The notes under the pieces were generated by a model. It made no database searches and was not told the DNA's origin. It worked only from the letters and a program-made list of their open reading frames with translations. DNA of 64,000 nucleotides, from positions 384,001-448,000 of the forward strand of contig CAVSBL010000002.1 in the NCBI GenBank assembly GCA_963726255.1, given 5' to 3'. A program made the translations under genes and the position numbers. Source of the stretch: Candidatus Bathyarchaeota archaeon (GTDB taxonomy: Archaea > Thermoproteota > Bathyarchaeia > 40CM-2-53-6). Positions 1 through 24,521 of the stretch are shown in pieces (within the stretch, counting starts at the first letter, position 1; each line of letters starts with the position of its first letter).

Positions 1-263
1 CCGTCATAGTACCAGGAGGCCACCATCGTTTCGAAAGCAGCGTGCTTCCCATTGATTTCCACTGGGATTGTTGGCTCCCAACAATAGTCGTTCACACGGA
101 CTTTTCTGCAATTTCGGGTGCCCCAAAGGATCATGAGCTGTTTCGGGAATTCGGGGGCATCAGGGTTTTCGAAAAAGTGAATCCACCACCACCAGTGCCA
201 CGTGCGGTTCTTGAGCATGTTTTCAGGATAGATTCTCCAGATATCATCGAAGACTTTGTGCAT
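1..263 (-). CDS. Hypothetical protein, 5' part only (runs off the window edge)
   Basis: Manual translation MHKVFDDIWRIYPENMLKNRTWHWWWWIHFFENPDAPEFPKQLMILWGTRNC... is open to position 1; not in the ORF track; start could be slightly upstream. Confidence 0.6.
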   Translation of the reverse strand, partial: MHKVFDDIWRIYPENMLKNRTWHWWWWIHFFENPDAPEFPKQLMILWGTRNCRKVRVNDYCWEPTIPVEINGKHAAFETMVASWYYD

Positions 264-445
264 GGAGGTCTGCAAATCAGACGGCCTCAGCGTTAATTGG
301 ATATGTGAACGTTTTGCGGATGTATCGGTTATCAATGGATAGTATGTTCAGTAAGGTGGATTCAGCCGTGTCAGATACCGGCGGACGAGCCTTCGTTTCG
401 TAGAATCTACTTAGCCCATATATGGGGGACCTGATCCGCAAGGCG

Positions 446-967
446 TTACCTCTGGAGTTCGAAAACGAATTCTTGGGCTCCCGCGAGAACAATCAACGCA
501 TGCATGGAGCCAGGCGTAGGCGATGAGACGCCTAGGAAAAGCGTAACGAACCCATTAGGCTGAATTGTGGGTAGGTTCCCGCCCCCGGTGAACATGTTCC
601 AGCGGTAACTAGCCGGGAACACAATATCGTTTGAAGTGATCGAAAGGTTTCCTTGTGGCTTAGCTCCGATAATTGTGGGATCCGTTGGCGATCCAACTGT
701 TCCTTTTGTGAGTTTCACATTGTCGAAGTAAATTGCAGTTATGTTCAGAGGGCTCGTACCTCTGTTCCATAGCGTGACTGAGACTTGCACGAGATCTCTG
801 TTGAAATTGTAGCCCACTAATTGCAGGCCCGAGACATCGGGCAACGAGGATTCGAGTGATGAGCGGTGGCTGGTGAGCCATACGGGCACGATCTGAGTTT
901 GTGTGAAGGCCACCATTATGACGAGGAGTATGAGCGGTGTAATTAGGGCTAAGTGTTTATCGTTCAT
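446..967 (-). CDS. Membrane-anchored extracellular beta-rich (Ig/pilin-like) protein
   Basis: Start MNDKHL at 967 overlaps the upstream stop (ATGA); N-terminal hydrophobic helix; VTLWNRGTSPLNITAIYFD resembles archaeal pilin/CARDB-like strands. Confidence 0.6.
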   Translation of the reverse strand: MNDKHLALITPLILLVIMVAFTQTQIVPVWLTSHRSSLESSLPDVSGLQLVGYNFNRDLVQVSVTLWNRGTSPLNITAIYFDNVKLTKGTVGSPTDPTIIGAKPQGNLSITSNDIVFPASYRWNMFTGGGNLPTIQPNGFVTLFLGVSSPTPGSMHALIVLAGAQEFVFELQR

Positions 968-1941
968 TTGTCTTCCTCCATCGTTTTGCCAGCCTTCCAA
1001 ACCCCCACTACTTCCTTCAAGACGAGTGCATATACGCACCACACAGATAGAACAACGATCAAACCCAATGTTACGATGATCAATGAATGGACGGGTAGGA
1101 TACCCGCGAGTCGAAGGTCGACGCTTGGTGCTTGTCCGTTGACGTAAGGGGTCTCAAGGGTTGGTTCGGTTTGCCAAGGCGGAGGATAGAACGAGGTTGA
1201 GGTCTGGCTCTGCAAGTATTGACCGCTGCCGGCAAAGTGTGCTGTCACAACGATTGCTCTAGGGGCAGTCAACGGAAAGGAAAGTTTGGCTGTTCCATCG
1301 GAGCCAGTCGTATTCTGGCCCATCTTCACTGGTCCAAAGTCGCTGCTTACAGAGAATTCCACGATTGCACCAGATATCGGGGCCCCGTTTTTGTTGGCAA
1401 GAAATACTGAGACGGTGATGACATTTCCACGTGCTGCGACATCTAACTGGCTAAGGTTAGTTGAGACGGGTGCTGTCCGCGTTGAAGCGCTCACGACGAG
1501 GAAGCCCTGCTGCAGGTTCTCCATGCCGAAGCATGGAATAATGCAATAAAACTGAAAACTCCCAACTTGACTTGCAGTAAAGTTCACTTCCTGCACCGGT
1601 ATCAGTTTATCAATATTGCCCGTCACAATATTGTATCCGCCAATTATCATCTTGTGAGGGTTATCGAAGGAGAGGTCTTGGTCGGCATAGAGGAACCGGA
1701 TATCGACTCGATCGCCCTGAGTTACCTGAAGGTAGAATGGGTTAGATGAGCCGTTAAACCCTGAGGAGCTGACGAGGACTGTGAAATACCTAACTCCTGT
1801 TTCGTTGCTGCTTGGCGTAAGGTTGAAGACCGTGAGGTTTCCGGAAATGTCCGTTGATAGACCCGGCGGTGCTGTTGCATTTGCGAATTGGAGGATTAAG
1901 AAAAATGTGACCAGCGCAACTAAAGCAACCGTGCCACGCAC
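964..1941 (-). CDS. Secreted cupredoxin-domain + Ig-like-domain membrane protein
   Basis: Signal peptide; cupredoxin-like segment (VTQGDRVDIRF...PH...GSFQFYCIIPCFGM); Big_1-like segment (GAPISGAIVEF...TGSDGTA); C-terminal TM helix. Confidence 0.7.
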   Translation of the reverse strand: MRGTVALVALVTFFLILQFANATAPPGLSTDISGNLTVFNLTPSSNETGVRYFTVLVSSSGFNGSSNPFYLQVTQGDRVDIRFLYADQDLSFDNPHKMIIGGYNIVTGNIDKLIPVQEVNFTASQVGSFQFYCIIPCFGMENLQQGFLVVSASTRTAPVSTNLSQLDVAARGNVITVSVFLANKNGAPISGAIVEFSVSSDFGPVKMGQNTTGSDGTAKLSFPLTAPRAIVVTAHFAGSGQYLQSQTSTSFYPPPWQTEPTLETPYVNGQAPSVDLRLAGILPVHSLIIVTLGLIVVLSVWCVYALVLKEVVGVWKAGKTMEEDK

Positions 1942-1942
1942 C

Positions 1943-3871
1943 TTAGAGCGCCTCCATCGATTCTGCGATCTTCATCATCTCGTTAATCGTGCTGTTAGCG
2001 AATATGGCATAACGGACCCCGTTTCTCCACCATTGAAGTTGGCCAGGCTCAATTACACCACCCGAGACTTGGCTTGGCTCTCTTGCGAAGCCAATGTTTC
2101 CCGCGACATTAACTCGTGTAAATTCAGATGGCAAATAGGCTGGAGAAGTGACATTAAGCGAGTCCTCCGCTTGGATGATGACGAATGCTACATCTTCACT
2201 GTACAGGGAAAGTGGCCTAGTCAACGGATTCTCGTAAATTAACGACACGATATGATCGTCTCCGGAAACCCTCACATCCTTCAGCTGGCTTCCTAGCGGA
2301 AATTCAATTGGCTTTGAAATTGAGAACCCGACAGTTTTCCTTGCTTCGGCGAGCGAGACACTTAGTCCGAGGTTCGACAAAGGCACTACAGGTATGGAAG
2401 AACGATTTCCGTTCGAGTTCAGTGATTTAATTGGAAGTTGTATTGGAGCAAATCCCAATGCGAAACCCGCGATTGCAAGTGATCCGTATTTCAGAAAGCT
2501 TCTCTTGGACACAGCGATTGACGATTTAGGCTTAGTTTGCAGTGCCAACCCAGTTGACTTTGCCGAGAAAGCTGTTGCACTTGTCTCACTTGGCTCTTGT
2601 GTTTCCCAGATTGAGATTACCGGGAACAGGTGACTGAAGGTGAGGTAGATGAGAGTGAAACCCGCGAAGGTGCCGGCGACAATCGAGAGTTCCACCCAAG
2701 TCGGTACGTACGATCCCGATGAGTAACTTAGCTGTGGAAGAGCTAGAGTTGGTACAATAATGTTGAAGCGTTCAATCCACATCCCAACGTCGACAAGCAG
2801 AGATGCGACGAGATATCCGGTTAGAGTTCTTGTGCGAGGTAGCCCTATCAGAAATGCTGGAATCACGAGTCCGCCGATGAGTTGAACCCAGAAGAATGTC
2901 GCGTACTGACCCCAGAGCAGGGACGCCATCCATTGTCCTTCAGGGCTTGATGAATCGAAGAACTTGTAACCGGGGACAAGATTCTCGTTTATCGTGAAGT
3001 AGATGACGATGATGTCAAGGGCTATCAGGAGTTTTCCGAGATTATCAAAGTGGCGTTTTGTTATATAGGCGTCTAAATGGTAGAACTTGGTGAGAAAAGC
3101 CATCACCAAAATTACGGTTGCTACGCCAGACAACAATGCTCCCGCCACGAAGTAGGGGCCGAATATTGTGCTGTTCCAACCCGTCCTGAACAGCATTGCA
3201 AAATCCCAAGATACGACCGTGTGTACCGAGATGGCGATGGGTATAATGATGATCGACATCATCTTAATCGCCTTCTCAAGGTGACTCCACTGGTCAGATG
3301 AACCGTTCCAGCCTAAGGAGAGCCTCCCGTAAAGCCACCTGCGAAACTTAGACGCGTCTTCCAATTTGTCCCTGCATGATGCGATGTCTGGAATCATAGG
3401 GAGATACAAGAAGATGGTGCTCCCGATCATGTAAGTCCCGATTGCCATAAAGTCCCAAGTTAACGGGGACTGAAGTCTAGCGAACACAATCGTGTTCAAC
3501 AATCTATCTGGCCTTCCGAGATCGGTTAGTGGCATCATGACCGCCATCATCAATGACGCGAAGGTGACTATTTCGGCAATCCTAGTGATTGGTTTCCTCC
3601 ATTCCGCGTTTGTGAGTCGAAGGATTGCGGACATCAAGGCGCCGACATGGCTTATGCCTATGAAGAAGACGAAGTTGATTATGTAGAACGCCCATGACAC
3701 GACGGACCTCATTCCCGTAACTCCCAGTCCAGTCGTCACCTGGACATAGTATGCGTAAACCCCCCACAGAGCAACGGCGAGAAGCGAGCTTCCTAGGGCA
3801 TAGGAGGACGAAGAGTGGTTCTTGACTGGTCCGAAAAGTATGTCGCTCTTCGAGGTCGAACTTGAGCTCAC
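1943..3871 (-). CDS. NrfD/PsrC-family (ActC/QrcD-like) quinol-interacting membrane subunit with C-terminal extra domain
   Basis: WAFYIINFVFFIGISH, DLGRPDR, SPLTWD, SVHTVVSWDF, STIFGPYFVAGA, WIERFNIIVP motifs; about 10 TM helices. Confidence 0.9.
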   Translation of the reverse strand: MSSSSTSKSDILFGPVKNHSSSSYALGSSLLAVALWGVYAYYVQVTTGLGVTGMRSVVSWAFYIINFVFFIGISHVGALMSAILRLTNAEWRKPITRIAEIVTFASLMMAVMMPLTDLGRPDRLLNTIVFARLQSPLTWDFMAIGTYMIGSTIFLYLPMIPDIASCRDKLEDASKFRRWLYGRLSLGWNGSSDQWSHLEKAIKMMSIIIIPIAISVHTVVSWDFAMLFRTGWNSTIFGPYFVAGALLSGVATVILVMAFLTKFYHLDAYITKRHFDNLGKLLIALDIIVIYFTINENLVPGYKFFDSSSPEGQWMASLLWGQYATFFWVQLIGGLVIPAFLIGLPRTRTLTGYLVASLLVDVGMWIERFNIIVPTLALPQLSYSSGSYVPTWVELSIVAGTFAGFTLIYLTFSHLFPVISIWETQEPSETSATAFSAKSTGLALQTKPKSSIAVSKRSFLKYGSLAIAGFALGFAPIQLPIKSLNSNGNRSSIPVVPLSNLGLSVSLAEARKTVGFSISKPIEFPLGSQLKDVRVSGDDHIVSLIYENPLTRPLSLYSEDVAFVIIQAEDSLNVTSPAYLPSEFTRVNVAGNIGFAREPSQVSGGVIEPGQLQWWRNGVRYAIFANSTINEMMKIAESMEAL

Positions 3872-4686
3872 GTACTTGTACCTCCTCTGGGTGGAAGGTA
3901 TAGGACGCTTGGGCTCGTGCCCAACTCATCTTTGAACCGGTAAGCCCCTCTTCCCTGAATCATGGTGCTCAATCTGGCAGTATCTACACCATTGCTCACA
4001 ACATCCTGAGCCGCATCACCGAACCAAAGCGCCTTCATTCCTGCCCTTGTGCAGGCTTCAACACAGGCAGGCACCATACCCATCTTGGTTCGATGTCTGC
4101 ACCAGACGCATTTTTCAGCAACGCCTCTCCTGTGAGGGATGTTGTAATCAGGCGAATATGGTATCTTCTTCTCCTCTTCGGTGACCGGAGGATCGTACCA
4201 GTTGAAGAATCTCCGCTCATAGGGACATGATGCTAGGCATATTCTGCAGCCTATGCATCTATTTTGATCTATCAGTACGATGTTGTCTTCGCTATAGTAA
4301 GTCGCCCCGACGGGGCAGACTTTTGTGCAGGGCGAATTCTGACAGTTCTGACAAGGAACTGGCATGTGGGTCCCGTCAGCGAGATCGAAGACTTGTATCC
4401 ATGGCTGCTTGCCCTCATAGTTTGGCTCTCCCCAAGCAGGTGGGACGTGCATCTCCGTGTGACAGCCTTCGGTGCATTTTCTACAGCCGTCACATTTGTC
4501 CAGGTCAATTACCCAGATGTATCGTCTTCCAGGTTCATTCCCTGTAGCCTCATTTCCCGGCGCTTGTGAACTGACGGGCTCGAACCCATTTAGAAGAGAA
4601 GAAAATACGAAACCGGCCGTAGCGATGGCCGTGCCCTTCAGCAATTGCCTACGCTCAACCTTCAATCGTTTCCTCGACATTATCAT
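3868..4686 (-). CDS. Tat-exported multi-4Fe-4S protein (NrfC/PsrB/QrcC/ActB2-like)
   Basis: ERRQLLK twin-Arg signal; CDGCRKCTEGC, CQNCQNSPCTKVC, CIGCRICLASC, CVWC...CVEAC. Confidence 0.92.
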   Translation of the reverse strand: MIMSRKRLKVERRQLLKGTAIATAGFVFSSLLNGFEPVSSQAPGNEATGNEPGRRYIWVIDLDKCDGCRKCTEGCHTEMHVPPAWGEPNYEGKQPWIQVFDLADGTHMPVPCQNCQNSPCTKVCPVGATYYSEDNIVLIDQNRCIGCRICLASCPYERRFFNWYDPPVTEEEKKIPYSPDYNIPHRRGVAEKCVWCRHRTKMGMVPACVEACTRAGMKALWFGDAAQDVVSNGVDTARLSTMIQGRGAYRFKDELGTSPSVLYLPPRGGTST

Positions 4687-4741
4687 TCCTCAAGGAAACA
4701 TGAGAGCGCGATCATAATTCTCTGACTTCATTGATCTGATG

Positions 4742-5376
4742 TTACCCGACAATTACGTATCCATTCATGTAACCTACGAGCCCCATTCCCGGTCCGCAAG
4801 GAGTCTCACACATGTACTCGTACACTCCTGGTACGATGAAGGTATACGTGAAGGTGACAATCGTGTCTGGAGGTATCGGGATGTCAATGTTGAGGCTGAG
4901 AACAGAGAATGTGTGGCTTATCTCAAGTGGAGAAATTGCTTGTCCTTGAGAGTAATGAGATACGACCTGTCCGCTATCGGTGTTATTGTAAATAGTGAAC
5001 TCTACCGAAGCGTTGCCTGTGTAGTTTTCGAGGACTGCGGTATCTAAGTTGGTAATTACGAATGTAACTGGGACACCCAACGGTATTGTTAGATTGTTGT
5101 TACTTGGTCCTGGACCGGATGCGTTCGTTCCTCGCGGGGTGCGGTACCATTTGCATACGAGGGGATTATGAATGCGTCGTAGCCGCCTCCACCCCAATCA
5201 GGAACGATATCAAGATTGACTACTTTCACGGGCGCGGATTCAACGGGTAGGCTTACACTCGTTGTCTGAGATGGGGTTTTAGCTCCGAATGAATTCATGC
5301 TTCCCCCAATCCAGCCCGCGGTAAGGCCCATCAACAGAATTCCGATAAACAGGACAGCCTCTAGTGAGCTCCTCAA
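4742..5376 (-). CDS. Membrane-anchored cupredoxin; reading frame broken at 5136-5139
   Basis: Two overlapping ORFs join if one base is added to the G4 run at 5136-5139; N-terminal TM; SHTF...PGVYEYMCETPCGPGMGLVGYM; start inferred at TTG 5376. Confidence 0.75.
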
Positions 5377-5450
5377 TCTGCTGTAACGCCTCTCGCTGCG
5401 GCAACCGAGAGTGAACCCTGCTGGAATCTGACTTATATGGGAGAGCACGT

Positions 5451-5479
5451 TTTCCAACAATGACTTCCAGGTTTGGAAA
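5451..5479. promoter_or_regulatory. Candidate operator: 7-bp inverted repeat between divergent genes
   Basis: TTTCCAA-N15-TTGGAAA just downstream of TATA-like TTATAT (~5433). Confidence 0.3.
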
Positions 5480-5491
5480 TCAGGTTTTCTC

Positions 5492-5854
5492 ATGCGAGTA
5501 GACGATGAGGATCACAAGAAGGCGGTGATCCGGACCTTGTTGGATGATCACTCAAGGCTAATACTGCTATCGTCTATGCTCGTTCCTAAATCGGTGGTTG
5601 ACATCACACGCGAGCATAGTATTCCAATGACATCCGCTTATAGGAAGGTTAAGGAGCTCAAAGAGTTCGGGTTGCTGAAAGTCGACCGCATTGTGTTGAC
5701 CGAGGATGGCAAGAAGTACGAGCTGCTAAAGAGCACGATACGATCGGCTAGTGTCCAATTCAGCAAGGGGATGTTGGACGTGGATGTAACGGCAAACGTC
5801 GAAGCAGACGAGAAACTCGTGAAACGGTTCTTTGCACTTAAAGAGGTGAAATGA
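5492..5854 (+). CDS. Winged-helix (ArsR-like) transcriptional regulator
   Basis: LLDDHSRLIL...PKSVVDI...IPMTSAYRKVKELKEFGLL...DGKKY archaeal wHTH pattern. Confidence 0.85.
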   Translation: MRVDDEDHKKAVIRTLLDDHSRLILLSSMLVPKSVVDITREHSIPMTSAYRKVKELKEFGLLKVDRIVLTEDGKKYELLKSTIRSASVQFSKGMLDVDVTANVEADEKLVKRFFALKEVK

Positions 5855-6132
5855 CGATGCAAGAAATCTACATACTTCGATCCTTCAAACTAGTAATAGT
5901 TCTTCTGGGCGCCGTCCTAATCTATTTGGGACTCAAGGGTTACCGTCGGAACCAAAGCCAGGAAATGATATTCTTAACGCTCGGATTCGCGCTGATTACC
6001 GCAGGCTCAGTCGCGGCAGGCGTGCTGTTCGAATTCCTTGGATTCCAACTGGTTGACGTAGAGATAGTGGAGTCTGCAATGGTCATCCTCGGGTTCGCTT
6101 CATTGATTTACTCAATTTATGGATTCGACTGA
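5851..6132 (+). CDS. Small 3-TM membrane protein of the type that follows archaeal wHTH genes
   Basis: YLGLKGYRRN..MIFLTLGFALIT...GFASLIYSIY; ATGA coupling to the wHTH gene. Confidence 0.75.
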   Translation: MTMQEIYILRSFKLVIVLLGAVLIYLGLKGYRRNQSQEMIFLTLGFALITAGSVAAGVLFEFLGFQLVDVEIVESAMVILGFASLIYSIYGFD

Positions 6133-6400
6133 CTTGACTGATCTCTTCGAATTTGCAAGCTTCCTTCTCATGCTCTACACAGCTGGAATTTCACTCTACA
6201 TTACCAAGCGAGCAACACGAGTGGGCTGGCGTTACCTCTTCCTCTCCTTTTTGTTGTCTTTGATGGTTCTTTTCCATGGCTTTCATCATCTCTTCGCCTT
6301 CATCGAGTACCCGTTCATGGAGCAAGCTTTCGAATTCGGTGCATCAGTTTCAGCGCTTTCCCTAGCGGTCGTCTACGTTTACGTGTGGAGCCATGGCTGA
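6119..6400 (+). CDS. Small 3-TM membrane protein with HGFHH motif
   Basis: Three hydrophobic segments; overlaps both neighbours. Confidence 0.7.
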   Translation: MDSTDLTDLFEFASFLLMLYTAGISLYITKRATRVGWRYLFLSFLLSLMVLFHGFHHLFAFIEYPFMEQAFEFGASVSALSLAVVYVYVWSHG

Positions 6401-6686
6401 AACAATGTCGCAGTTGATCGCTCAGGCCACATTAGTCATATTTACATTAGCTGCATTGGTCTTCGCATTCCAAGCTATTCGCCAAAGAAGAGCAAGGGAG
6501 CTTTCGCCATCGAGTTTCCCAACCCTTCTCCTTCTGATGATAGTTGGCTGGATAGCTACGGAAGGGGTCACTGACGCTAGCGGAACTTCACTTGGAGCAG
6601 CAGGAGAATGGGCACACCTAGCAGTGATGGCCCTATTTGCCGCAGCTATAACCTTGCAATTGAAGCGCTCCCGTAAGGAAACCTAA
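6393..6686 (+). CDS. Small 3-TM membrane protein
   Basis: Three hydrophobic segments; overlapping start. Confidence 0.7.
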   Translation: MAETMSQLIAQATLVIFTLAALVFAFQAIRQRRARELSPSSFPTLLLLMIVGWIATEGVTDASGTSLGAAGEWAHLAVMALFAAAITLQLKRSRKET

Positions 6687-7265: not shown

Positions 7266-9287
7266 TTACTGGCTCCTTAGAGTCATTGATTCGAGTGGGA
7301 TAGGTGTTTCGCGTAGTCTTTTCCCCACAATCTTCTCTATCGCCCGTATTGCCGCGGGTGGAACACCCATGGTCGGGCTCTCTCCTACTCCCTTCGCCCC
7401 GTGTGGAAGAGGGGATGGGATGTTGGCAAGTTTGACAACGACATTAGGCATTGTCAATGCACTTGGTATTCCTGCGTCTGCTATGGTAGCCGTTAGGAGC
7501 TGTCCATCTTCGTTGTACTTCGCCTCTTCAGTCAACGTTTGACCTATGCCCTGCGCAGATCCGCCAATGACTTGGCTCTCAATCATGGCCGGGTTAAGCG
7601 CTCGACCAACATCATAGTAAGCGATGCATTCTTTCAATCTCACAGTTCCAGACTTGTCTAGGTAGGCTGTTACGAGGTTCGCCCCGAACGCGTTCAGCTG
7701 ATCCTTCTGAGAAGTGAAAACTGTCACATCGAACTCGTGCCTCAACAGATCTTCAGGGGAGTACTTTCCAAGTCTCGTGGCGGCCTCATTCTTGATCTTC
7801 CGTGACGCTTCAACGAGCGCCGCTCCTCCTACAACTGTTGTTCTGCTCCCCCAGGTTCCCACACCTTCGTTCAGTTCGTCGGTATCAGACTTCTCGACTT
7901 CGATAACGGATTGAGGAACGCCCAGCTCCTCACTCACCAGGATTCGGGCGAACACGTCGTGCCTCTGCCCATGCGAGCTGCCTCCCATCCACACCTTGAC
8001 CCTCCCCTGCTTCACGGCGATTCTGGCGGATTCTCCAGGCTGCGCGGCTGGGATGAGTACGAAGCACGAGAAGCCAACACTCTCGCTTTCCCTTATGTCA
8101 TAATAACCCAGCTCCTTCACCGCAGATTCAAGAAATGGTTTGAAGGGATCAAGCTTCAGACCGAGCGGAGAAACAAACGAGTCGGCACTTGCATTTCTTA
8201 GCCTCACTTCCACGGGATCCATTTTCAATTCGTCGGCAACAAGGTCCATCATTCGTTCGATGAACATGGCCGCTTCGGGTCTTCCAGCCCCTCTGTAGGG
8301 ACCCAGCGGAACCTTGTTAGTGTACACCGATTTCGCGTCAACAAAAACGTTCTGAATCGCGTACGGTCCAGTTATCTGAAACCCTATCCACCTTGGAGCA
8401 AACTCCCCCATGCCATGAGCGTAAGCGCCTGCATCTATCAGCAGCTCAGTCTTCAGGCCGAGGACCTTCCCTGTCCTATCTGCGAAGATTCTCATCTTCG
8501 CTCGGGCGCCTCTACCTTGATTTGTCGCTGTCAAGTGTTCCATGCGAGTCTCAATCCACTTCACAGGTCTTCTCGTTTTCATAGAGGCGTGGCATGCGAT
8601 CACGTATTCTGGGTAGCTGTCTCCCTTGCTGCCAAATGCGCCCCCAGTGTCCATCTGAATGACTCTCACTGAACGCGGGCCTAGTCCCAGCGACTCGCAC
8701 AACCCCTCTTTCCATGAGTACACAGACTGGGTTGAAGCCCACACAGTAAGCCGCGAACCGTCATAGTGCACCACAATTCCTCGAGGTTCCAACGGGTTGG
8801 GGGATATTCTCCTATTCAACAACGTGTCTTCAAGAACGAGAGGCGCGTTGGGCAGATTGAATTCCTTCCCAAGTTGGAAGGCTGCGAGGATGTTCGAGTC
8901 CGTTCCCGGATGGATCGGGGGTGAGACGAGCGCTTCTTCCGGGTCGATTACAGGATTCAAAGGCTCGTAGTCTACTTCCACCTCGTCCATCGCATCGACG
9001 GCTTTGTACAAATCCTCCCCTAACACAGCTGCGACAGGTTGGCCAACGTAATTCACGTAATCCGCGGCAAGCACAGGCAGGATAGCTCCGGATCCCTCTG
9101 AGGCTCCCTCCCCCACCGAAGCCATAGTTGCCTTGAGTTCTGAATGATTGATTCCGCCCTTGACCTTGAGCAGTTTAGCTCGTGCGTGAGGACTGCGCAC
9201 AATCGCCAAATGTAACATGTGGGGCAAGCGGAGGTCGCTTACGAACTGCCCGCGCCCTTCGACAAGTTTCCTTGACGAGTCTTCCAT
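7266..9287 (-). CDS. Xanthine dehydrogenase-family molybdopterin-binding large subunit (CoxL form II / CutA-like)
   Basis: RSPHARA, GGAFGSK, PYRGAGRPEA, GTWGSR, GAKGVGE motifs; start inferred at 9287. Confidence 0.92.
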   Translation of the reverse strand: MEDSSRKLVEGRGQFVSDLRLPHMLHLAIVRSPHARAKLLKVKGGINHSELKATMASVGEGASEGSGAILPVLAADYVNYVGQPVAAVLGEDLYKAVDAMDEVEVDYEPLNPVIDPEEALVSPPIHPGTDSNILAAFQLGKEFNLPNAPLVLEDTLLNRRISPNPLEPRGIVVHYDGSRLTVWASTQSVYSWKEGLCESLGLGPRSVRVIQMDTGGAFGSKGDSYPEYVIACHASMKTRRPVKWIETRMEHLTATNQGRGARAKMRIFADRTGKVLGLKTELLIDAGAYAHGMGEFAPRWIGFQITGPYAIQNVFVDAKSVYTNKVPLGPYRGAGRPEAAMFIERMMDLVADELKMDPVEVRLRNASADSFVSPLGLKLDPFKPFLESAVKELGYYDIRESESVGFSCFVLIPAAQPGESARIAVKQGRVKVWMGGSSHGQRHDVFARILVSEELGVPQSVIEVEKSDTDELNEGVGTWGSRTTVVGGAALVEASRKIKNEAATRLGKYSPEDLLRHEFDVTVFTSQKDQLNAFGANLVTAYLDKSGTVRLKECIAYYDVGRALNPAMIESQVIGGSAQGIGQTLTEEAKYNEDGQLLTATIADAGIPSALTMPNVVVKLANIPSPLPHGAKGVGESPTMGVPPAAIRAIEKIVGKRLRETPIPLESMTLRSQ

Positions 9288-9384
9288 AGAGACCAGCTTG
9301 CCTGATGCTATCAATAACTCTTCGGCGGGTGCTCTATCCGACAAATCTTTAAAACGCTTCTTCGGTCTGCCCAGAAGAACAACT

Positions 9385-10257
9385 TTGCGTCCCAGGCCCT
9401 TCGAATACTACGCCCCATCCACCGTGAACGAAGCATTGACTCTTCTCTCCTCCAAAGAGGAAGCGAAGGTATTGGCAGGCGGGCAAAGTCTCGTCACCCT
9501 CATGAAGCTCCGTCTCGCAGCTCCCAAGGCTCTGATAGACATCAACGGAATCACGGAACTAGCGCACATACGTGAAGAAGGCGGAGTAATCGCTGTCGGT
9601 GCCCTGACTCGCTATGATCAACTTTCAGAGAGTAGCTTGATCCGTGAAAAGGTGCCCTTGCTCGCAGAGGCTGCGAGTATGGTTGCTGATCAGCAAGTCA
9701 GAAACCGAGGAACCATAGGAGGGTCACTGGCACACGCCGATCCAAGCGCTGATCTTCCAACGGCATGCACGGCCGCCGACGCGAAGATAGTCACAATGAG
9801 TCTCAATGGCTCGCGGTCGATAGAAATGTCAGATTTCTTCCGTGACTACTTCATAACCGCGCTTAGAGAGGACGAGATTGTCAAGGAAGTGAGAATTCCC
9901 ATTCCTCCTCAGCGATCAGGATCCGCATACCTGAAACTCACCAGGGGACACAACGATTTCGCAATCGTTTCCGTAGCGACTCAACTGACGGTCGACAACA
10001 ACCACCTGTGTCAAGCTGTGAATGTAGTCTTTGGAGGTGTTGCTCCCGCCCCCCTGCATGCGAAAGAGACTGAAATACTGCTGAAGAACCGCAAACCCGA
10101 CGAGAACTTGCTCAATGAGGCAGCTCAGGTCGCAGCAAACGGGTTGAGCCCAACTTCTGACATTAGGGCATCCGCCGACTACAAATTAGAGATGGCCAAG
10201 GTTCTGACGAAGAGGGCGCTCAAAACATCATTAGATCGGGCGATGGGAAGTGTTTGA
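9385..10257 (+). CDS. Xanthine dehydrogenase-family FAD subunit (CoxM/CutB-like)
   Basis: [33 protein letters not shown]; start inferred at TTG 9385. Confidence 0.93.
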
Positions 10258-10744
10258 CTTGACGAACGAATCGACGATTAGCGTGAGAGTGAATGGTAAG
10301 CAGTATCGGCGCAGAATCGAATCTCGTATGTTACTCGTCGACTTTCTTCGCGATGAGTTGGGTCTGACTGGTACTCACATTGGGTGTGACACAGGTCACT
10401 GCGGCGCCTGCACCGTTCTAATGAATGGCGTGACCGTCAAGTCATGTCTGCTACTCGCAGCCCAGGCCAACAATGCTGACATTCAGACAATCGAAGGTCT
10501 AGCAGTTGAAAATGAGTTGCATCCAATTCAGGAAGCGTTCCTTGAACATAATGCTTTGCAGTGTGGTTACTGTACGCCGGGAATGATACTCTCAAGCCTA
10601 TTCCTGCTCGAGAGAAACCCGAACCCGAGCGACGAAGAGATCAGGAGGGGTATCGACGGAAATCTCTGTCGATGCACGGGTTATCTGAACATCGTGGAAG
10701 CTGTCAAGGCTGCGGCTTTCAAGATGAAGCGAACCGGCACTTAA
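10250..10744 (+). CDS. Xanthine dehydrogenase-family 2Fe-2S subunit (CoxS/CutC-like)
   Basis: [29 protein letters not shown]. Confidence 0.95.
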
Positions 10745-10808
10745 GCCGTCTTTGTCTAAACTCTCGTAACGCACTGCGGGTTCAATCGCAAACTGGGCGA
10801 GCACGGGC

Positions 10809-11267
10809 TCATTCAAGCTGTATCTTCACGCACTCGAAGACTCCCGTCACGGTCTTATTCGCGGTATCCTTCATCATTCGTTGTCCGAGGCCAGCCATCA
10901 TACCGCCCACCTTTACGTCTGATTTGTAGGAAATCGCACTTCCTCCAGGAATTTCCTTAAGCTCAATCGTGGTGTCCAAATTGATGCTGCCCCCTGAACC
11001 GCTGCCGACCGCCTTGAGTCGTACATGACTTATTGGTTGCTTGTCCACAATTTCGATTCTGAATTTGAAGTCTGCCCTTATAGGCCCGACTCCGACGCGG
11101 ATGATCGCGGTAAACTCGTTCTCATTTTCGACGTCCAAACTCTTGAGATCGGGTAGGCACCTGCCCATTGTAGTAGGGTCAGTGATGAATTCCCATAGCT
11201 TTTCTCGCGGCGCAGTGAACTCATAGGTTCCTTCGGTAATCATGCCCAATCCTTCACGAGGCACCAT
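10809..11267 (-). CDS. coxG: CoxG / SRPBCC-family protein
   Basis: APREKLWEFITDP..CLP...VGVGPI...VGGMMAGLGQRMM. Confidence 0.85.
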   Translation of the reverse strand: MVPREGLGMITEGTYEFTAPREKLWEFITDPTTMGRCLPDLKSLDVENENEFTAIIRVGVGPIRADFKFRIEIVDKQPISHVRLKAVGSGSGGSINLDTTIELKEIPGGSAISYKSDVKVGGMMAGLGQRMMKDTANKTVTGVFECVKIQLE

Positions 11268-11666: not shown

Positions 11667-11769
11667 GGGTAACTACCTCTGATTTATCCATCTTCCATAT
11701 GAAACTATAGTGTATGGAAAAGCGAACATTAATATACCAACCTCTTTCCCATAGCTACCTGAACAACCA

Positions 11770-12450
11770 ATGGCAGCCGACGAAGCTACAGCATTCATGG
11801 AAGTTCTATCGAAGAGCCCACAATTCAAAGTCCTCACTATACTCGCCCAACGGCCACAAGAGGAACTAACGAAGACCGAGATCGCACAGAAGGCCGGAAT
11901 CGGGCGAACGACACTCTACCGAGTGTGGAACGACCTCGAACGAATGAAAGCCATAGCGCCTTCACGCCACGTTGGCGCAGTAACCCTGTACCGAATGAAC
12001 TCGCAAAGCCCGGTCGTACAATCATTCCTTAGCATAACCAAGAGCCTCACGACGGTCACAGACGCGGTCTCGAGGATAGAGCAACTTCGCAAACTACAGG
12101 ACTCGGCTAGGTCCGAATTCGGAGAAACCGTGCCAGCTGGGCCGAGCCTATTAGTGAAGCTCCTCAGAGCGAACGCCGTCTCGGCCGAGAGTGCGAAGCC
12201 AAAAGTAGATCTGCAGTTATCTTCGAACGAGGCAGAGGCGGTACGCGGACTCGCCAGCGCTGGCTTAGTATTCGAAAACGGCGCAAGCTTCTACCTTAGT
12301 CAACTCGGAGCACAAACCGCTCAGGGCGCAGCTAAGATATGGGCCGCAGAGAGTTCAGAATCATTGGACCAAGCAATCTCAACTGCGCGAATAGCTTTGA
12401 ATCTCATAAACCAAGAGATTAGGAAACTCAAAACTCAAGTACCGAAGTAA
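11770..12450 (+). CDS. HTH/winged-helix protein with two wHTH-like segments
   Basis: LTKTEIAQKAGIGRTTLYRVWNDL; second segment LASAGLVFE...YLSQLG. Confidence 0.75.
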   Translation: MAADEATAFMEVLSKSPQFKVLTILAQRPQEELTKTEIAQKAGIGRTTLYRVWNDLERMKAIAPSRHVGAVTLYRMNSQSPVVQSFLSITKSLTTVTDAVSRIEQLRKLQDSARSEFGETVPAGPSLLVKLLRANAVSAESAKPKVDLQLSSNEAEAVRGLASAGLVFENGASFYLSQLGAQTAQGAAKIWAAESSESLDQAISTARIALNLINQEIRKLKTQVPK

Positions 12451-12542
12451 AGCAATCGGTTCGCGTCCTTCACCGTTTCTTCGAATTTTCTGTGATGTCT
12501 TATCGGAGAAACTTTAAGTTACACGATTGCTTCGTGTCAGTT

Positions 12543-14198
12543 ATGCCGACAGATACGAGGTACCTTTTCATCACCGGCGGCGTCATGTCCGGAATAGGCA
12601 AAGGCATAACCACCGCTTCAATCGCAAAACTTCTGCAACTCAGGGGCTTCAAAGTTTCTGCAATGAAGATCGACCCGTACCTGAATGTTGACGCCGGGAC
12701 AATGAATCCTGTAACCCATGGTGAAGTCTTTGTTACGGAGGACGGCGGCGAGATTGACATGGACTTGGGCACGTATGAGAGGTTCCTCGACATCAATCTA
12801 TCACGAAGCCACAACTCCACGACTGGCCAAATCTACACCACAGTCATAAACAAAGAACGACGTGGTGATTTTCTCGGCCAATGCGTCCAAATCATCCCTC
12901 ACATAACCGATGAAATCAAGTCAGTTGTCAGGGGCATCGCGGAGAAGGCGCGCCCGGACGTTCTTCTCGTAGAAGTAGGAGGCACCGTCGGAGACATTGA
13001 AAGCCTCCCCTACCTCGAGGCCGCACGCCAACTGAGACTCGAGGAGGGAAATCAGAAGGTCCTCTTCGCTCACGTCACACTCGTTCCAGTGCTAGACGTC
13101 GTAGGCGAACAGAAAACGAAACCGACACAACACAGCGTACAGGAGCTGCGAAGGATAGGTATTCAGCCCGACCTCATCGTGGCCCGAACCAAAGGGTCAC
13201 TTAACCCAAATCCTCGAAAGAAGATAGCTCTTTTCTGCAACGTCGAGGAGCGCGCAGTCTTCGCATCGCCAGACCTCTCAAGCATATATCAAACCCCAAT
13301 CGAACTTGACTCACAAGGTATGGGAGTTTTTCTAGCTGAGCGATTCGCTCTAGGCAAGCGCGAAGCCGATTGGACGCCGTGGAAGCGGGTCGTTGACAGG
13401 CTCTCAAACCCAGGTCAAGTTGTTCGCATTGCACTCTGCGGAAAATACGCTGAGCTGGCCGATTCCTATGTGAGCGTAAACGAGGCTTTGAAGCATGCTG
13501 GCGGAGCTTGCGACGCACGAGTCGAAATTGAGTGGATTGAAACCGAATTGTTCGAGAAGGATGCTTCCAATTGCTCAATACTCTCTCGCTTTAACGGAGT
13601 CCTAATACCCGGTGGATTCGGATCCCGCGGCACTGAAGGGAAGATAGCTGCACTGTCCTATGCGCGGGAGAGCAATATCCCCACACTCGGGATATGCTTC
13701 GGCTTCCAGCTAGCCGTTGTAGAATTCTGCAGGCACATCGGCCTTAAGAATGCGAACAGCGCCGAAATCGACCCCAAAACCCCTCACCCCGTCATCAATC
13801 TCATGCCTGAGCAGCTGGGTGTGGATTCGAAAGGTGCAACGATGCGGCTGGGTGCGCATGAAGTGCGCATCACACCGAACACTACTGCGAGCTTCCTATA
13901 CGGCCGCGAGATAGTATCGGAGAGGCACAGGCACAGGTGGGAGGTAAACCCTGACTATATTGACCGAATTGTAAGAGCGGGAGGAGTATTCTCAGGGCGG
14001 AGTATGGACGGGAGAAGGATGGAGATATTTGAGCTACCTGGCAAATTCTTTTACATGGGGACCCAATTCCACGCCGAATTCAAATCCAGGCCTGCCAGGC
14101 CTTCGCCGCCGTACTACGGCTTGATTAAGGCTGCGCTCGACAAGAAGTTAGGGAAGCCTTCACCGGAACTAGTGCCGTTAATCCGAGAAGCTGCCTAA
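12543..14198 (+). CDS. pyrG: CTP synthase
   Basis: [51 protein letters not shown]. Confidence 0.98.
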
Positions 14199-21383: not shown

Positions 21384-22931
21384 TCATGGGGCTCTGCTTC
21401 TTCTAGCTATGGCGGAGAGTGCTTCCGTGGTTTCCTTCTCAGCCTGTTTCTGGATGGCCTCAACCTTCGTTCGCACTCGTCCCCGGTAGTCCTCATCTTT
21501 TGTGCTAGCTAGGTTTATGGTGACGTTGGAGATCGCTCCCAGCGTGCTTGCGTGTGCGAGATAGATTGCGGTTTGCAGGTCGGAAAGCGCGTTCTCATTC
21601 GCAAATTCAGCTAGCTTGTTGGCGATGGAGAGTATCCTGGATGCTTGTTCAGCGGTCTTTAACGGGACGTCTGCGGCTCCTTTCAGTCGGTTTTGGATTT
21701 CCTCCGCCCTCTTACGCTTCTCCTGCTCGTTCTCCTTTGGAAGGCGGTAAGCTTGCATTAACGCTGTGAAGCTTTGCGAATCCTCATCGACTAGAAGCAG
21801 AAGACCCTTCTGTAGAGATTCGCTCTCCGCGAGCACCTCTCCGGCCATTTTCCAGTTCTTCTCTTGTTCGGGTTTCTTGAGTGTCAGGCGAGAGACCATA
21901 CTCACAAGGCTTGCCGCCAGGGACCCGACGAATGCTGATACGCTGCCGCCCCCGGGTACGGGTTTGTCTGACGCTACTTCACTACCGAAGGTTGCCAAAC
22001 TCAGATCGATTAGCCTGTTGCCTTGAGCCTCTCCTAGCCTTCTTTCAATTATCTGGCTCTTGTTGAAGCTCCGCAACCGTAGGTAGAATTCTGCAGCATC
22101 AGTCAGGGCTTCCATTGGCACGAGTCCGACGATTTCACTTTCGAGCACTCCAACGCCTTGCTGCTGTGCGAGGGCCTTCGTGAGTTCGAAGGCTTTGAAA
22201 AGTTGGCTAGCTTTGTAGTCAACCATATTCATGGAGACTTGAACGATACCCCGGTCCTTCAAGTCGAAACCTAGAGCCTTGACGGCTGATAGGCCGCCGT
22301 CCCTTCCGCGTACTTGTTTGGCTATCTTCTTAGCTACGTCAAGGTTGTTCGTCGCTAGGTTAACGTTGTAGGCTATGAGAATCTGTCTCGCCCCAATGGC
22401 TGTAGCCCCCGCGGTTGCATGAATCGCGTTTGGGCCAAAGTCCGGCTTCTTGTCTGGATTCTTTCCGATTTCATCCCTAAGCCCCTCGAACTCTCCCTTC
22501 CTTACGTCGGCTAGGTTCCGTCTATCTGGACGCGTCGCAGCTTCCTCGTAGAGGAATACTGGAACCTTGAAGCGTAATGCAAAATCGTTCGCGAACTCCT
22601 TCGCAAGCTGCACGCATTCGGCCATGGTGACATCGGAGATGGGAACGAAGGGTATGACGTCGACCGCGCCCATCCGTGGGTGTTGGCCCTGGTGCTTGTT
22701 TAAATCGATGAGCTCGATCGCCTTTGCGCTGACCGCCAGTGCGGCTTCCTCGACTGCTTCTGGTTCCCCGACAAATGTTAAGACGGATCGGTTGTGGTCT
22801 GCGTCGGATTCAATGTCGAGCACCTTCACGTTTCTTGATTTGGCTTCCCCAACAATCGAATCGATGGCCTCTTTTCTTCGGCCTTCACTGAAGTTCGGGA
22901 CACATTCAACGAGTTTCAAAATTACCAACAC
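21384..22931 (-). CDS. ftcD: Glutamate formiminotransferase / formiminotetrahydrofolate cyclodeaminase fusion
   Basis: LVECVPNFSEGR, DHNRSV, HPRMGAVDVIPF; C-terminal ASDKPVPGGGSVSA. Confidence 0.95.
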   Translation of the reverse strand: MLVILKLVECVPNFSEGRRKEAIDSIVGEAKSRNVKVLDIESDADHNRSVLTFVGEPEAVEEAALAVSAKAIELIDLNKHQGQHPRMGAVDVIPFVPISDVTMAECVQLAKEFANDFALRFKVPVFLYEEAATRPDRRNLADVRKGEFEGLRDEIGKNPDKKPDFGPNAIHATAGATAIGARQILIAYNVNLATNNLDVAKKIAKQVRGRDGGLSAVKALGFDLKDRGIVQVSMNMVDYKASQLFKAFELTKALAQQQGVGVLESEIVGLVPMEALTDAAEFYLRLRSFNKSQIIERRLGEAQGNRLIDLSLATFGSEVASDKPVPGGGSVSAFVGSLAASLVSMVSRLTLKKPEQEKNWKMAGEVLAESESLQKGLLLLVDEDSQSFTALMQAYRLPKENEQEKRKRAEEIQNRLKGAADVPLKTAEQASRILSIANKLAEFANENALSDLQTAIYLAHASTLGAISNVTINLASTKDEDYRGRVRTKVEAIQKQAEKETTEALSAIARRSRAP

Positions 22932-23035
22932 GAAAGTGACCCACCGGAGCTAATTTGGTTTCGGTTGATTTCCATCAGGTCTATCGTTCTTTAAGGCGGA
23001 ACAACATTATCCATTGTCACTTCGAGTTGACGAAT

Positions 23036-23938
23036 TTGCCTGGTAAAATGATGGACGGGCGCCCGGTGGCCCAACAGGTACGGTCAAAGGTCAAGGAGCA
23101 GATCAGCGTTCTAAGAAAGCAGCGAGTAGAACCTAATCTTGCGACCATTCTCGTTGGCGACAACCCCGCGTCCAAGGCGTACCTGAGGAACATACACGCC
23201 GCATGTCAGGAGGTCGGAATCAACTCTCATAGCACTGACCTCCCTGCGAGTTCCTCTCAGGAAGAGTTGGGAAAAGTCATCAGGAAACTGAACGAAGATC
23301 GGAAAGTGACAGGGGTGTTGCTTCAACTACCTCTTCCCAAAGGCCTAAACGAGCTCGCTGCCACCTCCGAGATACGTGTGGAGAAGGACGTAGACGGGTT
23401 GAACCCGCGCAACCTTGGCCTGCTGTTTCAGAAGGCACCGAGAATTGTTCCCTGCACGCCCAAAGGGGTTATGGTGATTCTGAGGTATTACGGTGTGAGA
23501 ACTGCGGGTAAACATGCGGTAATAATTAACCGAACCAAGCTGCTCGGAAGGCCACTGTCGCAGCTGCTGCTCAACGAAGACGCCACTGTAACCGTTTGCC
23601 ATTCGAAGACTGAAGGGCTTGGCGGAATTGCGAAACAGGCAGATCTTCTGTTTACGGGGATTGGCCGCCGTAAGGAATTCACAGTGGACGCGAATATGAT
23701 TAAACCGGGGGCAACTGTAGTTGACATCGGAACCACTGGCATAGACGGAAAATTGGTGGGCGATGTAGATTTTGATTCGGCCATTCGGGTTGCTTCCCTG
23801 GTTACTCCTGTACCGGGCGGGGTGGGACCTATGACAATTGCCATGCTTCTGTACAATGCATTGCTAACCGCCTGCTTGCAGAAGGATGTGCCATTAGCAT
23901 TCAACCCTGATGAGTTGGGCTCTCCTGCAGCCGTATGA
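23036..23938 (+). CDS. folD: Methylenetetrahydrofolate dehydrogenase/cyclohydrolase
   Basis: LQLPLP, KDVDG, PCTPKG, TVTVCHSKT, TPVPGGVGPMT. Confidence 0.96.
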   Translation: MPGKMMDGRPVAQQVRSKVKEQISVLRKQRVEPNLATILVGDNPASKAYLRNIHAACQEVGINSHSTDLPASSSQEELGKVIRKLNEDRKVTGVLLQLPLPKGLNELAATSEIRVEKDVDGLNPRNLGLLFQKAPRIVPCTPKGVMVILRYYGVRTAGKHAVIINRTKLLGRPLSQLLLNEDATVTVCHSKTEGLGGIAKQADLLFTGIGRRKEFTVDANMIKPGATVVDIGTTGIDGKLVGDVDFDSAIRVASLVTPVPGGVGPMTIAMLLYNALLTACLQKDVPLAFNPDELGSPAAV

Positions 23939-24521
23939 GAGAAAACGTCAACTACGAGCGCAGATGCTCGCCCTAAGGAATAGCCATCCTTCGTCCGAAC
24001 TAGATTCTCTAAGCTCCAAGATCGAGGCGAAGTTAATCGAACTTCCGGCCGTGAAGAATTGCAGAACGATATCGACCTATCTGCACATTGGAAGTGAAGT
24101 AAGGACCAACGGTGTTGTCCAGTGGTCGATCCTCAACGATAAGAGAGTGATTGTGCCTATTACCGACAGAACAAGCAAACGGCTAACCTTCTGCGAACTT
24201 AAGGACCCGGAACGAGAACTTGAGAAGGGAAATTACGGAATTCCAGAACCGAAACCAGAATTCCGCCGTCCAGTCCCTCTGGAAGAGGCGGATGTAGTTC
24301 TCGTTCCCGGCGTCGCATGGGACCTGCAAGGGTTCAGGATCGGTTATGGAGCCGGGTACTACGATCGAAGCATTAACTCATTGCACACGCCTGTCATTAA
24401 ACTGGGGCTAGCCTACGAATTCCAAATGCTCTCGAAAATCCCGAGATCTCCTTTCGACCGACGAGTCAACAAGATCGTGACGGAAGAGAGAATTATCGAC
24501 ACAGATCCCCGGCCTCTATGA
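23910..24521 (+). CDS. 5-formyltetrahydrofolate cyclo-ligase
   Basis: YGIPEP, VLVPGVAWD, RIGYGAGYYDR. Confidence 0.93.
   Translation: MSWALLQPYERKRQLRAQMLALRNSHPSSELDSLSSKIEAKLIELPAVKNCRTISTYLHIGSEVRTNGVVQWSILNDKRVIVPITDRTSKRLTFCELKDPERELEKGNYGIPEPKPEFRRPVPLEEADVVLVPGVAWDLQGFRIGYGAGYYDRSINSLHTPVIKLGLAYEFQMLSKIPRSPFDRRVNKIVTEERIIDTDPRPL

Follow-up and report, generated by a model that had tools for sequence, protein, structure and literature searches.

What does an NrfC/NrfD pair do when the genes beside it encode cupredoxins in place of a cytochrome c or a molybdenum enzyme? The question is raised by a 64-kb stretch of DNA from a Candidatus Bathyarchaeota archaeon, hereafter the window, which belongs to a contig of about 2.36 Mb and whose archaeal origin is borne out by genes for fibrillarin, Nop56/58, TBP and an ATP-dependent DNA ligase. 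Five co-directional minus-strand open reading frames (ORFs), spanning positions 446-5493, encode in order of transcription a cupredoxin (cupredoxin-1), an NrfC-type iron-sulfur protein, an NrfD-family membrane protein, a second cupredoxin (cupredoxin-2) and a short fifth protein. A first reading made from the letters alone, which we call the sequence-only reading, had taken this tight run for a heme-free, copper-based operon resembling Alternative Complex III (ACIII). Our comparisons suggest, as the most economical explanation, a quinol:cupredoxin oxidoreductase that uses neither heme nor molybdenum and is built on an NrfCD core of ActB2/ActC type; we give this roughly an even chance of being right.

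The five-gene operon is real and translationally coupled, with all five ORFs where the run had been placed. The NrfC and NrfD genes overlap in GTGA and the cupredoxin-2 and fifth genes in ATGA, NrfD and cupredoxin-2 are separated by a spacer of 1 nt, and a 55-nt gap lies between cupredoxin-1 and NrfC, which is preceded by GAGGA. One scan of genome contigs returned two loci. The nearest, L001, from a Candidatus Bathyarchaeia metagenome-assembled genome (MAG; JBEKFP010000001.1; NrfD identity 90%), carries all five genes in identical order; the negative results given below for the window and for L001 refer to 64 kb and 18 kb of DNA, respectively. For more distant relatives, we compared between search tables the sizes of the longest contig carrying each homologue, and estimated chance agreement from near-misses within ±200 bp. 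Exact matches in contig size were obtained for cupredoxin-2 and NrfD in 5 of 4320 pairs (0.26 expected by chance), for cupredoxin-2 and the fifth gene in 10 of 1188 pairs (0.16 expected), and for the fifth gene and NrfD in 2 of 3960 pairs (0.17 expected). Three of the NrfD/cupredoxin-2 coincidences concern contigs of 3.4-4.4 kb, too short for both genes unless these adjoin; identity there is 40-49% for the cupredoxin-2 relatives and 57-69% for the NrfD relatives. Together with L001, this indirect evidence speaks to the gene neighbourhood whose survey had been proposed, and it indicates that the trio of NrfD, cupredoxin-2 and fifth gene remains linked at identities as low as about 40%.

As judged from sequence comparison, the membrane subunit is clearly of ActC type and belongs to the ActC lineage. 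In addition to a Pfam NrfD match of 110.7 bits, a search against all PDB chains gave strong matches solely to the four solved ActC subunits (6lod_C, 222 bits, E 1.3e-64, residues 9-428; 6f0k_C, 215 bits; 6btm_C, 210 bits; 8k9e_C, 201 bits), extending over about 420 residues, while ActF was matched at 19-28 bits and PsrC was not detected in the PDB at E <=0.01. The ActC-like motifs noticed earlier align with INFVWWIGIGH, SVHSIISLDF and TVFPPYFVAGA of Roseiflexus castenholzii ActC, and the ActC-type NrfD subunit of ACIII, with its 10 transmembrane (TM) helices and quinol pocket on the positive (P) side, has its counterpart here. Placement relative to DsrP, QrcD and PsrC was made by PDB and NCBIfam scores and by a quick tree of 32 relatives, with unfinished search and midpoint root.

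Residue roles described for R. castenholzii ActC in PMC7439408 were transferred through the NrfD-ActC PDB alignment. The predicted quinol pocket and proton-path residues appear largely kept: W84, I88, F91, P138 and L168 of the hydrophobic pocket of ActC correspond to W60, I64, F67, P114 and L137 of NrfD, Asp171, Asp252, His246 and Glu393-Arg394 correspond to D140, D223, H217 and E367-R368, and H75 is a further pocket-equivalent position. W60, F67, H75, D140, H217 and R368 are invariant in the relatives (32/32). ActC His141 of the quinol site, called 'strictly conserved' in PMC7439408, is replaced by Asp117 in NrfD; in the alignment of relatives this position is Asp in 25 of 32 and His in the other seven. 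An acidic residue at this position of transmembrane helix 2 (TMH2) is also described for PsrC, DsrP and QrcD in section 7 of PMC8076601.

Beyond the part shared with ActC, NrfD continues for about 200 aa: a basic linker leads into an additional hydrophobic helix (YGSLAIAGFALGFAPI), and this into a domain of about 170 aa that is predicted to lie outside the cell. Sequence and profile searches gave no significant PDB match for this domain; a match to DUF4367 is weak (E 0.035), and reaches E <=0.01 in 4 of 32 members. The extension is conserved in archaeal forms of about 640 aa. Among the best 120 database matches to NrfD, 68 are 583-668 aa long and the other 52 are 393-477 aa long; the long forms, where named by their source, come from Bathyarchaeia, 'Thaumarchaeota', Thermosphaera, Ca. 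Caldarchaeum and archaeon HR01, and the 26 that were sampled form one clade in the quick tree (support of 92 in the Shimodaira-Hasegawa-like approximate likelihood ratio test, SH-aLRT). The seven His-bearing sequences form a single subclade inside it, a second Bathyarchaeia subclade of about 640 aa with the ActC-type His (AHLGRPDRW; P0168, P0171, P0174, P0179, P0190, P0192 and P0197). The long family may comprise two functional flavours, since one subclade has His where the window protein has Asp.

The NrfC protein, which had been read as a 4Fe-4S protein exported by the twin-arginine translocation (Tat) system, fits that description. It begins with RRQLLKG (the Tat Pfam match is weak, 14.8 bits against a cutoff of 22.7), matches Pfam Fer4_11 at 56.5 bits, and holds 16 cysteines in four complete motifs within 272 aa. 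With Fer4_11, NrfD, the 16 cysteines and the GTGA-overlapped genes, the pair has the composition of an NrfC/NrfD module of the complex iron-sulfur molybdoenzyme (CISM) type. Among NCBIfam models it comes nearest to DsrO (173 bits, cutoff 200), with QrcC (134 bits, cutoff 400) next, neither reaching its cutoff, and its best PDB matches are PsrB (92 bits) and the iron-sulfur halves of ActB (71-89 bits). An insertion between the third and fourth motifs (FNWYDPP...EKC) is of ActB/DsrO type, being common to NrfC and ActB and lacking in PsrB, and on this comparison NrfC is ActB2/DsrO-like. Its third motif, CIGCRIC, has all its cysteines as in PsrB (CIACGAC), whereas ActB has CIGTRYC or CVGTKYC. In four-cluster proteins such as NarH and DmsB, a missing cysteine gives a [3Fe-4S] cluster next to the quinone site. 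NrfC is expected to hold four [4Fe-4S] clusters and no ACIII-like [3Fe-4S] cluster, since its third motif is complete.

Neither a heme protein nor a molybdenum subunit accompanies the module, as the sequence-only reading had said of the operon. The CxxCH motif is absent from the five proteins and from every stop-to-stop frame of >=80 aa in the window, and Pfam identified no cytochrome c, cytochrome c maturation protein, heme-copper oxidase or enzyme with molybdenum bis(pyranopterin guanine dinucleotide) (Mo-bisPGD) among 67 window and 16 L001 ORFs (n=83). The sole molybdenum enzyme in the window is a CoxLMS/CoxG-type hydroxylase (7266-11267; MoCoBD_1/2, FAD_binding_5, Fer2_2), 1.9 kb from the operon. 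It was considered as the missing partner and rejected, as it is a cytoplasmic protein of the xanthine-dehydrogenase family and does not adjoin the operon in L001.

The second locus returned by the scan, L002, shows what such a pair can be associated with in bacteria. It comes from a Deltaproteobacteria MAG, its NrfD is 46% identical to that of the window and scores 253 bits to ActC, and its positions 3-5744 encode a molybdenum-type subunit, a separate NrfC, NrfD, and then a four-CxxCH cytochrome and a protein with an EB_dh heme domain; the molybdenum gene is cut off by the end of the contig. This is an ACIII-related layout with a split ActB, and compared with it the archaeal branch has swapped its NrfCD partners. 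The iron-sulfur homologue of L002 has no signal peptide and follows the molybdenum-type subunit, and the archaeal NrfC has its own Tat signal, as expected if it is exported independently of a molybdenum partner. One could still suppose that a Mo-bisPGD enzyme or a multiheme cytochrome encoded elsewhere docks on NrfC and that the cupredoxins are accessory, as the partners of the same NrfCD pair in L002 and the extent of the DNA covered (64 kb here, 18 kb in L001) would allow. We regard this as improbable: the Tat signal of NrfC, unlike iron-sulfur subunits exported together with a molybdenum subunit, the tight coupling of the five genes, and the apparent co-location in relatives of the fifth gene with NrfD and cupredoxin-2 all point to the encoded proteins as the partners, and the only molybdenum protein nearby is the cytoplasmic CoxL-type hydroxylase.

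The first of the two cupredoxins stands as an operon gene in L001, where it is an intact ORF of 230 aa, but in the window it is split by a 1-nt frameshift. One frame, 5089..5493, holds the TM helix and the first strand (possible TTG start at 5376, read to about 5136), and the other, 4742..5197, holds the remainder (from about 5135 to the stop at 4742). Alignment of the DNA with L001 puts the 1-nt gap directly after GCACCC, near 5135. A programmed frameshift was rejected, since no slippery heptamer occurs at the site and the L001 orthologue lies in one frame. With no slippery site, the break is either an assembly indel in the C-run or a recent inactivation, and we used the intact L001 protein for all analyses of cupredoxin-1.

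The best solved relatives of cupredoxin-1 are the CuA domains of subunit II of ba3 oxidases (E 6.7e-7 by sequence, 4.8e-11 by family profile). His114, Cys149, Cys153 and Met160 of the ba3 protein align with His, Cys, Cys and Met of cupredoxin-1, the ligand His157 is matched by Met, after which three residues are inserted. In the window, the codons of the metal loop lie at 4915-4917 (His, in SHTF) and 4796-4810 (C-E-T-P-C), followed by G-P-G-M and G-Y-M to about 4766. The family is small, with 111 matches at E <=1e-3 and 23 at E <=1e-10 in an exhaustive search of 1.84 billion representatives. When the L001 protein was aligned with 19 of the 111 matches, picked by length and rank (n=20), H174, C209, C213, G214, G216, M217 and M223 were each conserved in >=90%, and the second CuA His was Met in 18 of the 20; the exceptions are P0043, which has His and keeps the canonical CGPGHxxM, and P0054, which is without both cysteines. 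No fusion to NrfC or NrfD occurs among the 25 relatives scanned. In P0038 and P0044, an extra N-terminal region of about 90-130 aa (CGLRLxIKGS...VDC), in which Pfam finds nothing, stands ahead of the TM helix and might represent a cytoplasmic domain or an upstream gene that has become fused.

The build of cupredoxin-1, one N-terminal TM helix and a CuA-type domain, is that of ba3-type subunit II, and 3 of the 25 relatives scanned (P0041, P0042 and P0061) exceed the Pfam COX2 cutoff. These observations would suit a protein that is itself subunit II of a heme-copper oxidase or nitric oxide reductase whose catalytic subunit is encoded elsewhere, the hemes then residing in the oxidase of an NrfCD-oxidase supercomplex; an association of ACIII with an oxidase is described in PMC7439408. 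Neither the window nor L001 contains a subunit I gene, the change from His to Met is nearly invariant in the family, and the family is very small, unlike oxidase subunits, which together make this explanation quite unlikely in our estimation.

Cupredoxin-2 had been read as a cupredoxin joined to an immunoglobulin (Ig) domain, and both parts are recovered. An AlphaFold2 model (mean predicted local distance difference test score, pLDDT, 73.5) shows a signal helix, beta domains at 50-151 and 161-251, a disordered linker and a helix at 283-324, and the Big_1 match reaches 32.3 bits, just under the cutoff of 34.9. A Foldseek search with the model returned >=500 matches at E <=1e-3, the top ones being multicopper oxidases and copper nitrite reductases. 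NosZ chain 1fwx_A, the C-terminal part of which is its CuA domain, superposes on the model at 2.4 Å over 102 columns. The best match of the family profile is the extra N-terminal type-1 copper domain of Hyphomicrobium denitrificans nitrite reductase (E 3e-7), in an alignment that pairs the His and the first Cys and in which the loop His is missing. The 36 homologue clusters are 310-350 aa long and 40-98% identical; aligning the window protein with 16 of these 36 homologues (n=17), we found H96, C133, P136, C137, G139, M140 and Q144 invariant in 17/17, down to 37% identity (codons of the ligand positions: H96, 1654-1656; C133, 1543-1545; C137, 1531-1533; M140, 1522-1524; Q144, 1510-1512).

The C-terminal loops of the two cupredoxins align with each other (hhalign probability 92%; CxxPCGxGM in cupredoxin-1, CxxPCxGM in cupredoxin-2), which suggests that both are CuA-derived, with His, Cys-x3-Cys and Met kept and the second CuA His changed to Met. 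The canonical CuA pattern (H-x(n)-C-x3-C-x3-H-x2-M) is incomplete in both, the fold and H...C-x3-C being present and the second His absent, and in cupredoxin-2 the remaining C-x3-C-x2-M-x3-Q is invariant in all 17 sequences. A type 1 (blue) copper site (His ... Cys-x(n)-His-x(m)-Met) does not describe them either, as the loop His is absent and a second Cys stands in that region. On the conserved ligand positions, copper may be bound by both proteins; with one His, Met in place of the second, a distal Met or Gln, and two cysteines where CuA has its bridging pair, the site may be a binuclear CuA-like or a mononuclear thiolate-rich centre. The N-glycosylation sequons (N-x-S/T) of cupredoxin-1 (six) and cupredoxin-2 (eight), of which NrfC has none, fit an outer location of both cupredoxins.

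The missing second His also invites another explanation, namely that Cys-x3-Cys is a redox-active dithiol/disulfide or persulfide and the complex a quinol-linked thiol, disulfide or sulfur oxidoreductase. A CxxxC with a His is also the metal and redox motif of Sco-type thiol-disulfide proteins. NrfCD modules are common in sulfur metabolism (Psr, Ttr, Sre and Dsr), according to PMC8076601. The cysteine pair nevertheless lies exactly at the positions of the bridging cysteines of CuA, the flanking His and Met are equally conserved although a simple disulfide needs neither, one family member keeps the full CuA motif, and no gene of sulfur metabolism is found in the window or L001. We hold a dithiol function to be rather improbable and return to copper as the preferred assignment.

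For the fifth gene, M26 (coordinate 967) is the most likely start, since it gives the length of 173 aa seen in 27 of the 33 homologue clusters and agrees with the ATGA overlap. An N-terminal TM helix is followed in the protein by a conserved domain of about 140 aa without cysteine; here the invariant residues include W30, W67, W123-N124-M125 and H156. The earlier label of an Ig/pilin-like protein found no backing: there is no Pfam or NCBIfam match and no PDB match by sequence, the best PDB profile match has E 0.15, and the hhalign probability against cupredoxin-2 is 1.3%.

These elements can be assembled into a quinol:cupredoxin oxidoreductase, a membrane complex whose redox domains would all face outward. 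Oxidation of quinol would take place in the P-side pocket of the ActC-like NrfD, with Asp117 and Asp140 as possible proton acceptors, and the electrons would enter the chain of four [4Fe-4S] clusters in the Tat-exported NrfC and leave through copper centres in the two tethered cupredoxins. The geometry of the tethers suggests a division of labour between these. Cupredoxin-1, with its N-terminal helix and short linker as in ActA or oxidase subunit II, would stay near the membrane-proximal cluster, and cupredoxin-2, with an Ig stalk, a flexible linker and a C-terminal anchor, could reach the distal cluster, at the site where the molybdenum subunit docks in Psr-type enzymes, or an external acceptor. 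The final acceptor, a terminal oxidase or an extracellular one, would be encoded elsewhere. A functional precedent is provided by photosynthetic ACIII, which reduces the cupredoxin auracyanin (PMC7439408). The sequences themselves show how the genes are ordered and coupled, to which families they belong, which ligand positions are conserved, that the window is free of CxxCH and that NrfC has a Tat signal; that copper is bound, that the proteins form a complex, which way the electrons run, whether protons are moved and what finally accepts the electrons is inference.

The direction in particular might be the reverse, with Fe(II), reduced humics, a periplasmic oxidoreductase or some other external donor supplying electrons to the cupredoxins, which would pass them through NrfC to quinone reduction in NrfD, as QrcABCD does with cytochrome c3. 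The four complete cysteine motifs of NrfC suggest [4Fe-4S] clusters of low potential, comparable to those in PsrB and DsrO. DsrO (173 bits) and DsrP (120 bits) lead the NCBIfam models for the two subunits, with QrcC and QrcD next, and an outer cupredoxin on a stalk would be well placed to meet partners outside the cell. We consider this unlikely, if somewhat less so than the other alternatives: copper centres are usually of high potential, which would make quinone reduction uphill, and the DsrO, DsrP and Qrc scores are all below curated cutoffs. The Asp at the TMH2 position of NrfD, shared with DsrP and QrcD according to section 7 of PMC8076601, gives no indication of direction, since quinol-oxidising PsrC also has Asp/Glu there.

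Several observations weigh against quinol oxidation through a copper exit. The gene neighbourhood is seen directly in L001, and elsewhere through contig-size coincidences that cover NrfD, cupredoxin-2 and the fifth gene but not cupredoxin-1, which is itself frameshifted in the window genome and is either dispensable there or affected by an assembly error. The nearest bacterial NrfD relative, that of L002, sits with a molybdenum-type subunit and a four-CxxCH cytochrome, so that the NrfD clade is not intrinsically heme-free. The quinol-site His of ActC is Asp in NrfD and NrfC is without the [3Fe-4S] signature, and the energetics of ACIII are therefore not simply transferable. The second His of type 1 and CuA sites is missing in both cupredoxins, whose cysteine pair could be a disulfide, and all Pfam and NCBIfam matches for the cupredoxin domains are below cutoff. 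Finally, the window contains no acceptor, no quinone-biosynthesis gene and no copper chaperone.

A bolder proposal, which we put forward tentatively and think somewhat doubtful, is that archaea of the TACK group (Thaumarchaeota, Aigarchaeota, Crenarchaeota and Korarchaeota) possess a heme-independent 'complex III', a minimal proton-motive quinol oxidase of ActB2/ActC type, whose electron exit would be an undescribed CuA-derived His/Cys2/Met2 (or Gln) centre, possibly binuclear, on two tethered cupredoxins, with copper replacing the six hemes of bacterial ACIII. If true, quinol oxidation of the ACIII kind would extend to Archaea, a heme wire would be shown to be replaceable by copper, and there would be a natural CuA variant lacking one His on two small soluble domains. 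It would also bear on membrane quinone use by Bathyarchaeia, which are usually treated as anaerobes.

Features of the operon and its divergent neighbours in the window
Feature	Position	Strand	Basis
Cupredoxin-1: N-terminal TM anchor and CuA-type (COX2-like) cupredoxin domain	4742..5376	minus	Reading frames, L001 orthologue, ba3 CuA matches
NrfC-type four-cluster iron-sulfur protein, 272 aa, own twin-arginine signal	3868..4686	minus	Pfam, NCBIfam and PDB matches, Cys count
NrfD-family membrane subunit, ActC-like core, residues 1 to ~430	2582..3871	minus	Solved ActC chains, conservation counts
NrfD C-terminal extension, residues ~431-642	1943..2581	minus	ORF, weak DUF4367 match
Cupredoxin-2, 325 aa: signal peptide, cupredoxin, Big_1-type Ig, linker, TM helix	964..1941	minus	Pfam, alignment, AlphaFold2, Foldseek
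Fifth gene, 173 aa from M26 (most likely start): TM helix and ~140-aa domain	446..967	minus	Homologue lengths, conservation
Helix-turn-helix (HTH) regulator	5492-5854	plus	Divergent from operon
DUF7521 membrane protein	5851-6132	plus	Divergent from operon

The HTH and DUF7521 genes are a candidate regulator pair, because the same pair adjoins the operon in L001 (5712-6355). Beyond DUF7521 the window has two extra small membrane proteins, at 6119-6400 (with an HGFHHLF stretch) and 6393-6686, and the region 5492-6686 is possibly a metal-responsive regulatory unit. Downstream of the operon, L001 encodes a 156-aa polytopic membrane protein without family and an FrhB/FdhB-type F420-dependent subunit with a ferredoxin domain (11716-13794); at this position the window has an unrelated minus-strand ORF that runs off its start (3-335). 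A DoxX-family membrane protein (50716-51126) and a Pyr_redox_2 flavoprotein resembling type 2 NADH dehydrogenase or sulfide:quinone reductase (NDH-2/SQR-like; 55663-56913) hint at a membrane quinone pool in this organism, which the CoxLMS/CoxG hydroxylase could feed. The window also carries a tetrahydrofolate (THF) C1 cluster unusual for an archaeon (21384-24521; formiminotransferase-cyclodeaminase, FolD and 5-formyl-THF cyclo-ligase), and no tRNA or Rfam feature was found across its 64 kb.

How does the operon compare with systems already described? The likeness to ACIII of Rhodothermus, Flavobacterium, Roseiflexus and Chloroflexus that the sequence-only reading had seen holds for the ActB2 and ActC core: NrfD is closer to ActC than to any other solved chain, and NrfC has the insertion of the iron-sulfur domain of ActB. 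In photosynthetic ACIII the electron chain likewise ends in a cupredoxin, auracyanin. The likeness does not extend to the other subunits, since the operon is without CxxCH and hence without multiheme ActA and monoheme ActE, NrfC with its 272 aa corresponds to B2 and has neither the molybdopterin-like B1 domain nor the [3Fe-4S] signature, and the window and L001 each have a single NrfD-family ORF and no ActF. No ActD-like match was obtained with libraries that hold no ActD model, the ActC His has become Asp, and the archaeal NrfD adds a TM helix and an outer domain. ActC and ActF are listed only for bacterial phyla in section 5 of the 2021 survey PMC8076601.

PsrABC, DsrOP and QrcCD share with the operon a four-[4Fe-4S] protein of NrfC type on an NrfD-type quinone-site subunit, and the acidic residue of TMH2. 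They differ from it in their partners, as no molybdenum subunit, DsrMKJ or QrcAB is found in the window or L001, and PsrC is undetectable by sequence. The curated NCBIfam models for DsrMKJOP and QrcABCD subunits are all missed (DsrO, 173 bits against a cutoff of 200; DsrP, 120 against 350; QrcC, 134 against 400; QrcD, 54 against 570).

Cupredoxin-1 resembles the CuA-bearing subunit II of Thermus thermophilus ba3 oxidase, and the CuA domain of NosZ, in having one TM helix with a cupredoxin domain and the spacing H-x34-C-x3-C. It differs in the Met that stands for His157, in the three residues inserted before the distal Met, and in that it does not adjoin an oxidase subunit I or a NosZ propeller. 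For cupredoxin-2, the closest known protein is the N-terminal type 1 copper domain of H. denitrificans nitrite reductase (2dv6, 6tfd), with which it shares the N-terminal His and the Cys. Its loop reads C-x3-C-x2-M-x3-Q where the nitrite reductase domain has C-x4-H-x4-M, and an Ig domain and membrane anchor follow.

In a collection of full texts from which most subscription journals are missing, we found no published link of NrfD or ACIII-type modules to archaeal cupredoxin subunits. The nearest report, PMC4681859, goes no further than noting, for an aigarchaeon, the lack of a typical complex III and the presence of blue copper proteins bound to the membrane, and the partners of NrfCD given in the 2021 review PMC8076601 are molybdoenzymes, multiheme cytochromes or hydrogenase. 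By this comparison, the operon is not ACIII, because it lacks four of the six subunits as well as the B1 domain and the [3Fe-4S] signature, and it is not Psr, Dsr or Qrc, because all scores fall below cutoff and the partners are absent; its sequences mark it as a module of NrfCD type that belongs to the ActC lineage and whose partner is of a new kind.

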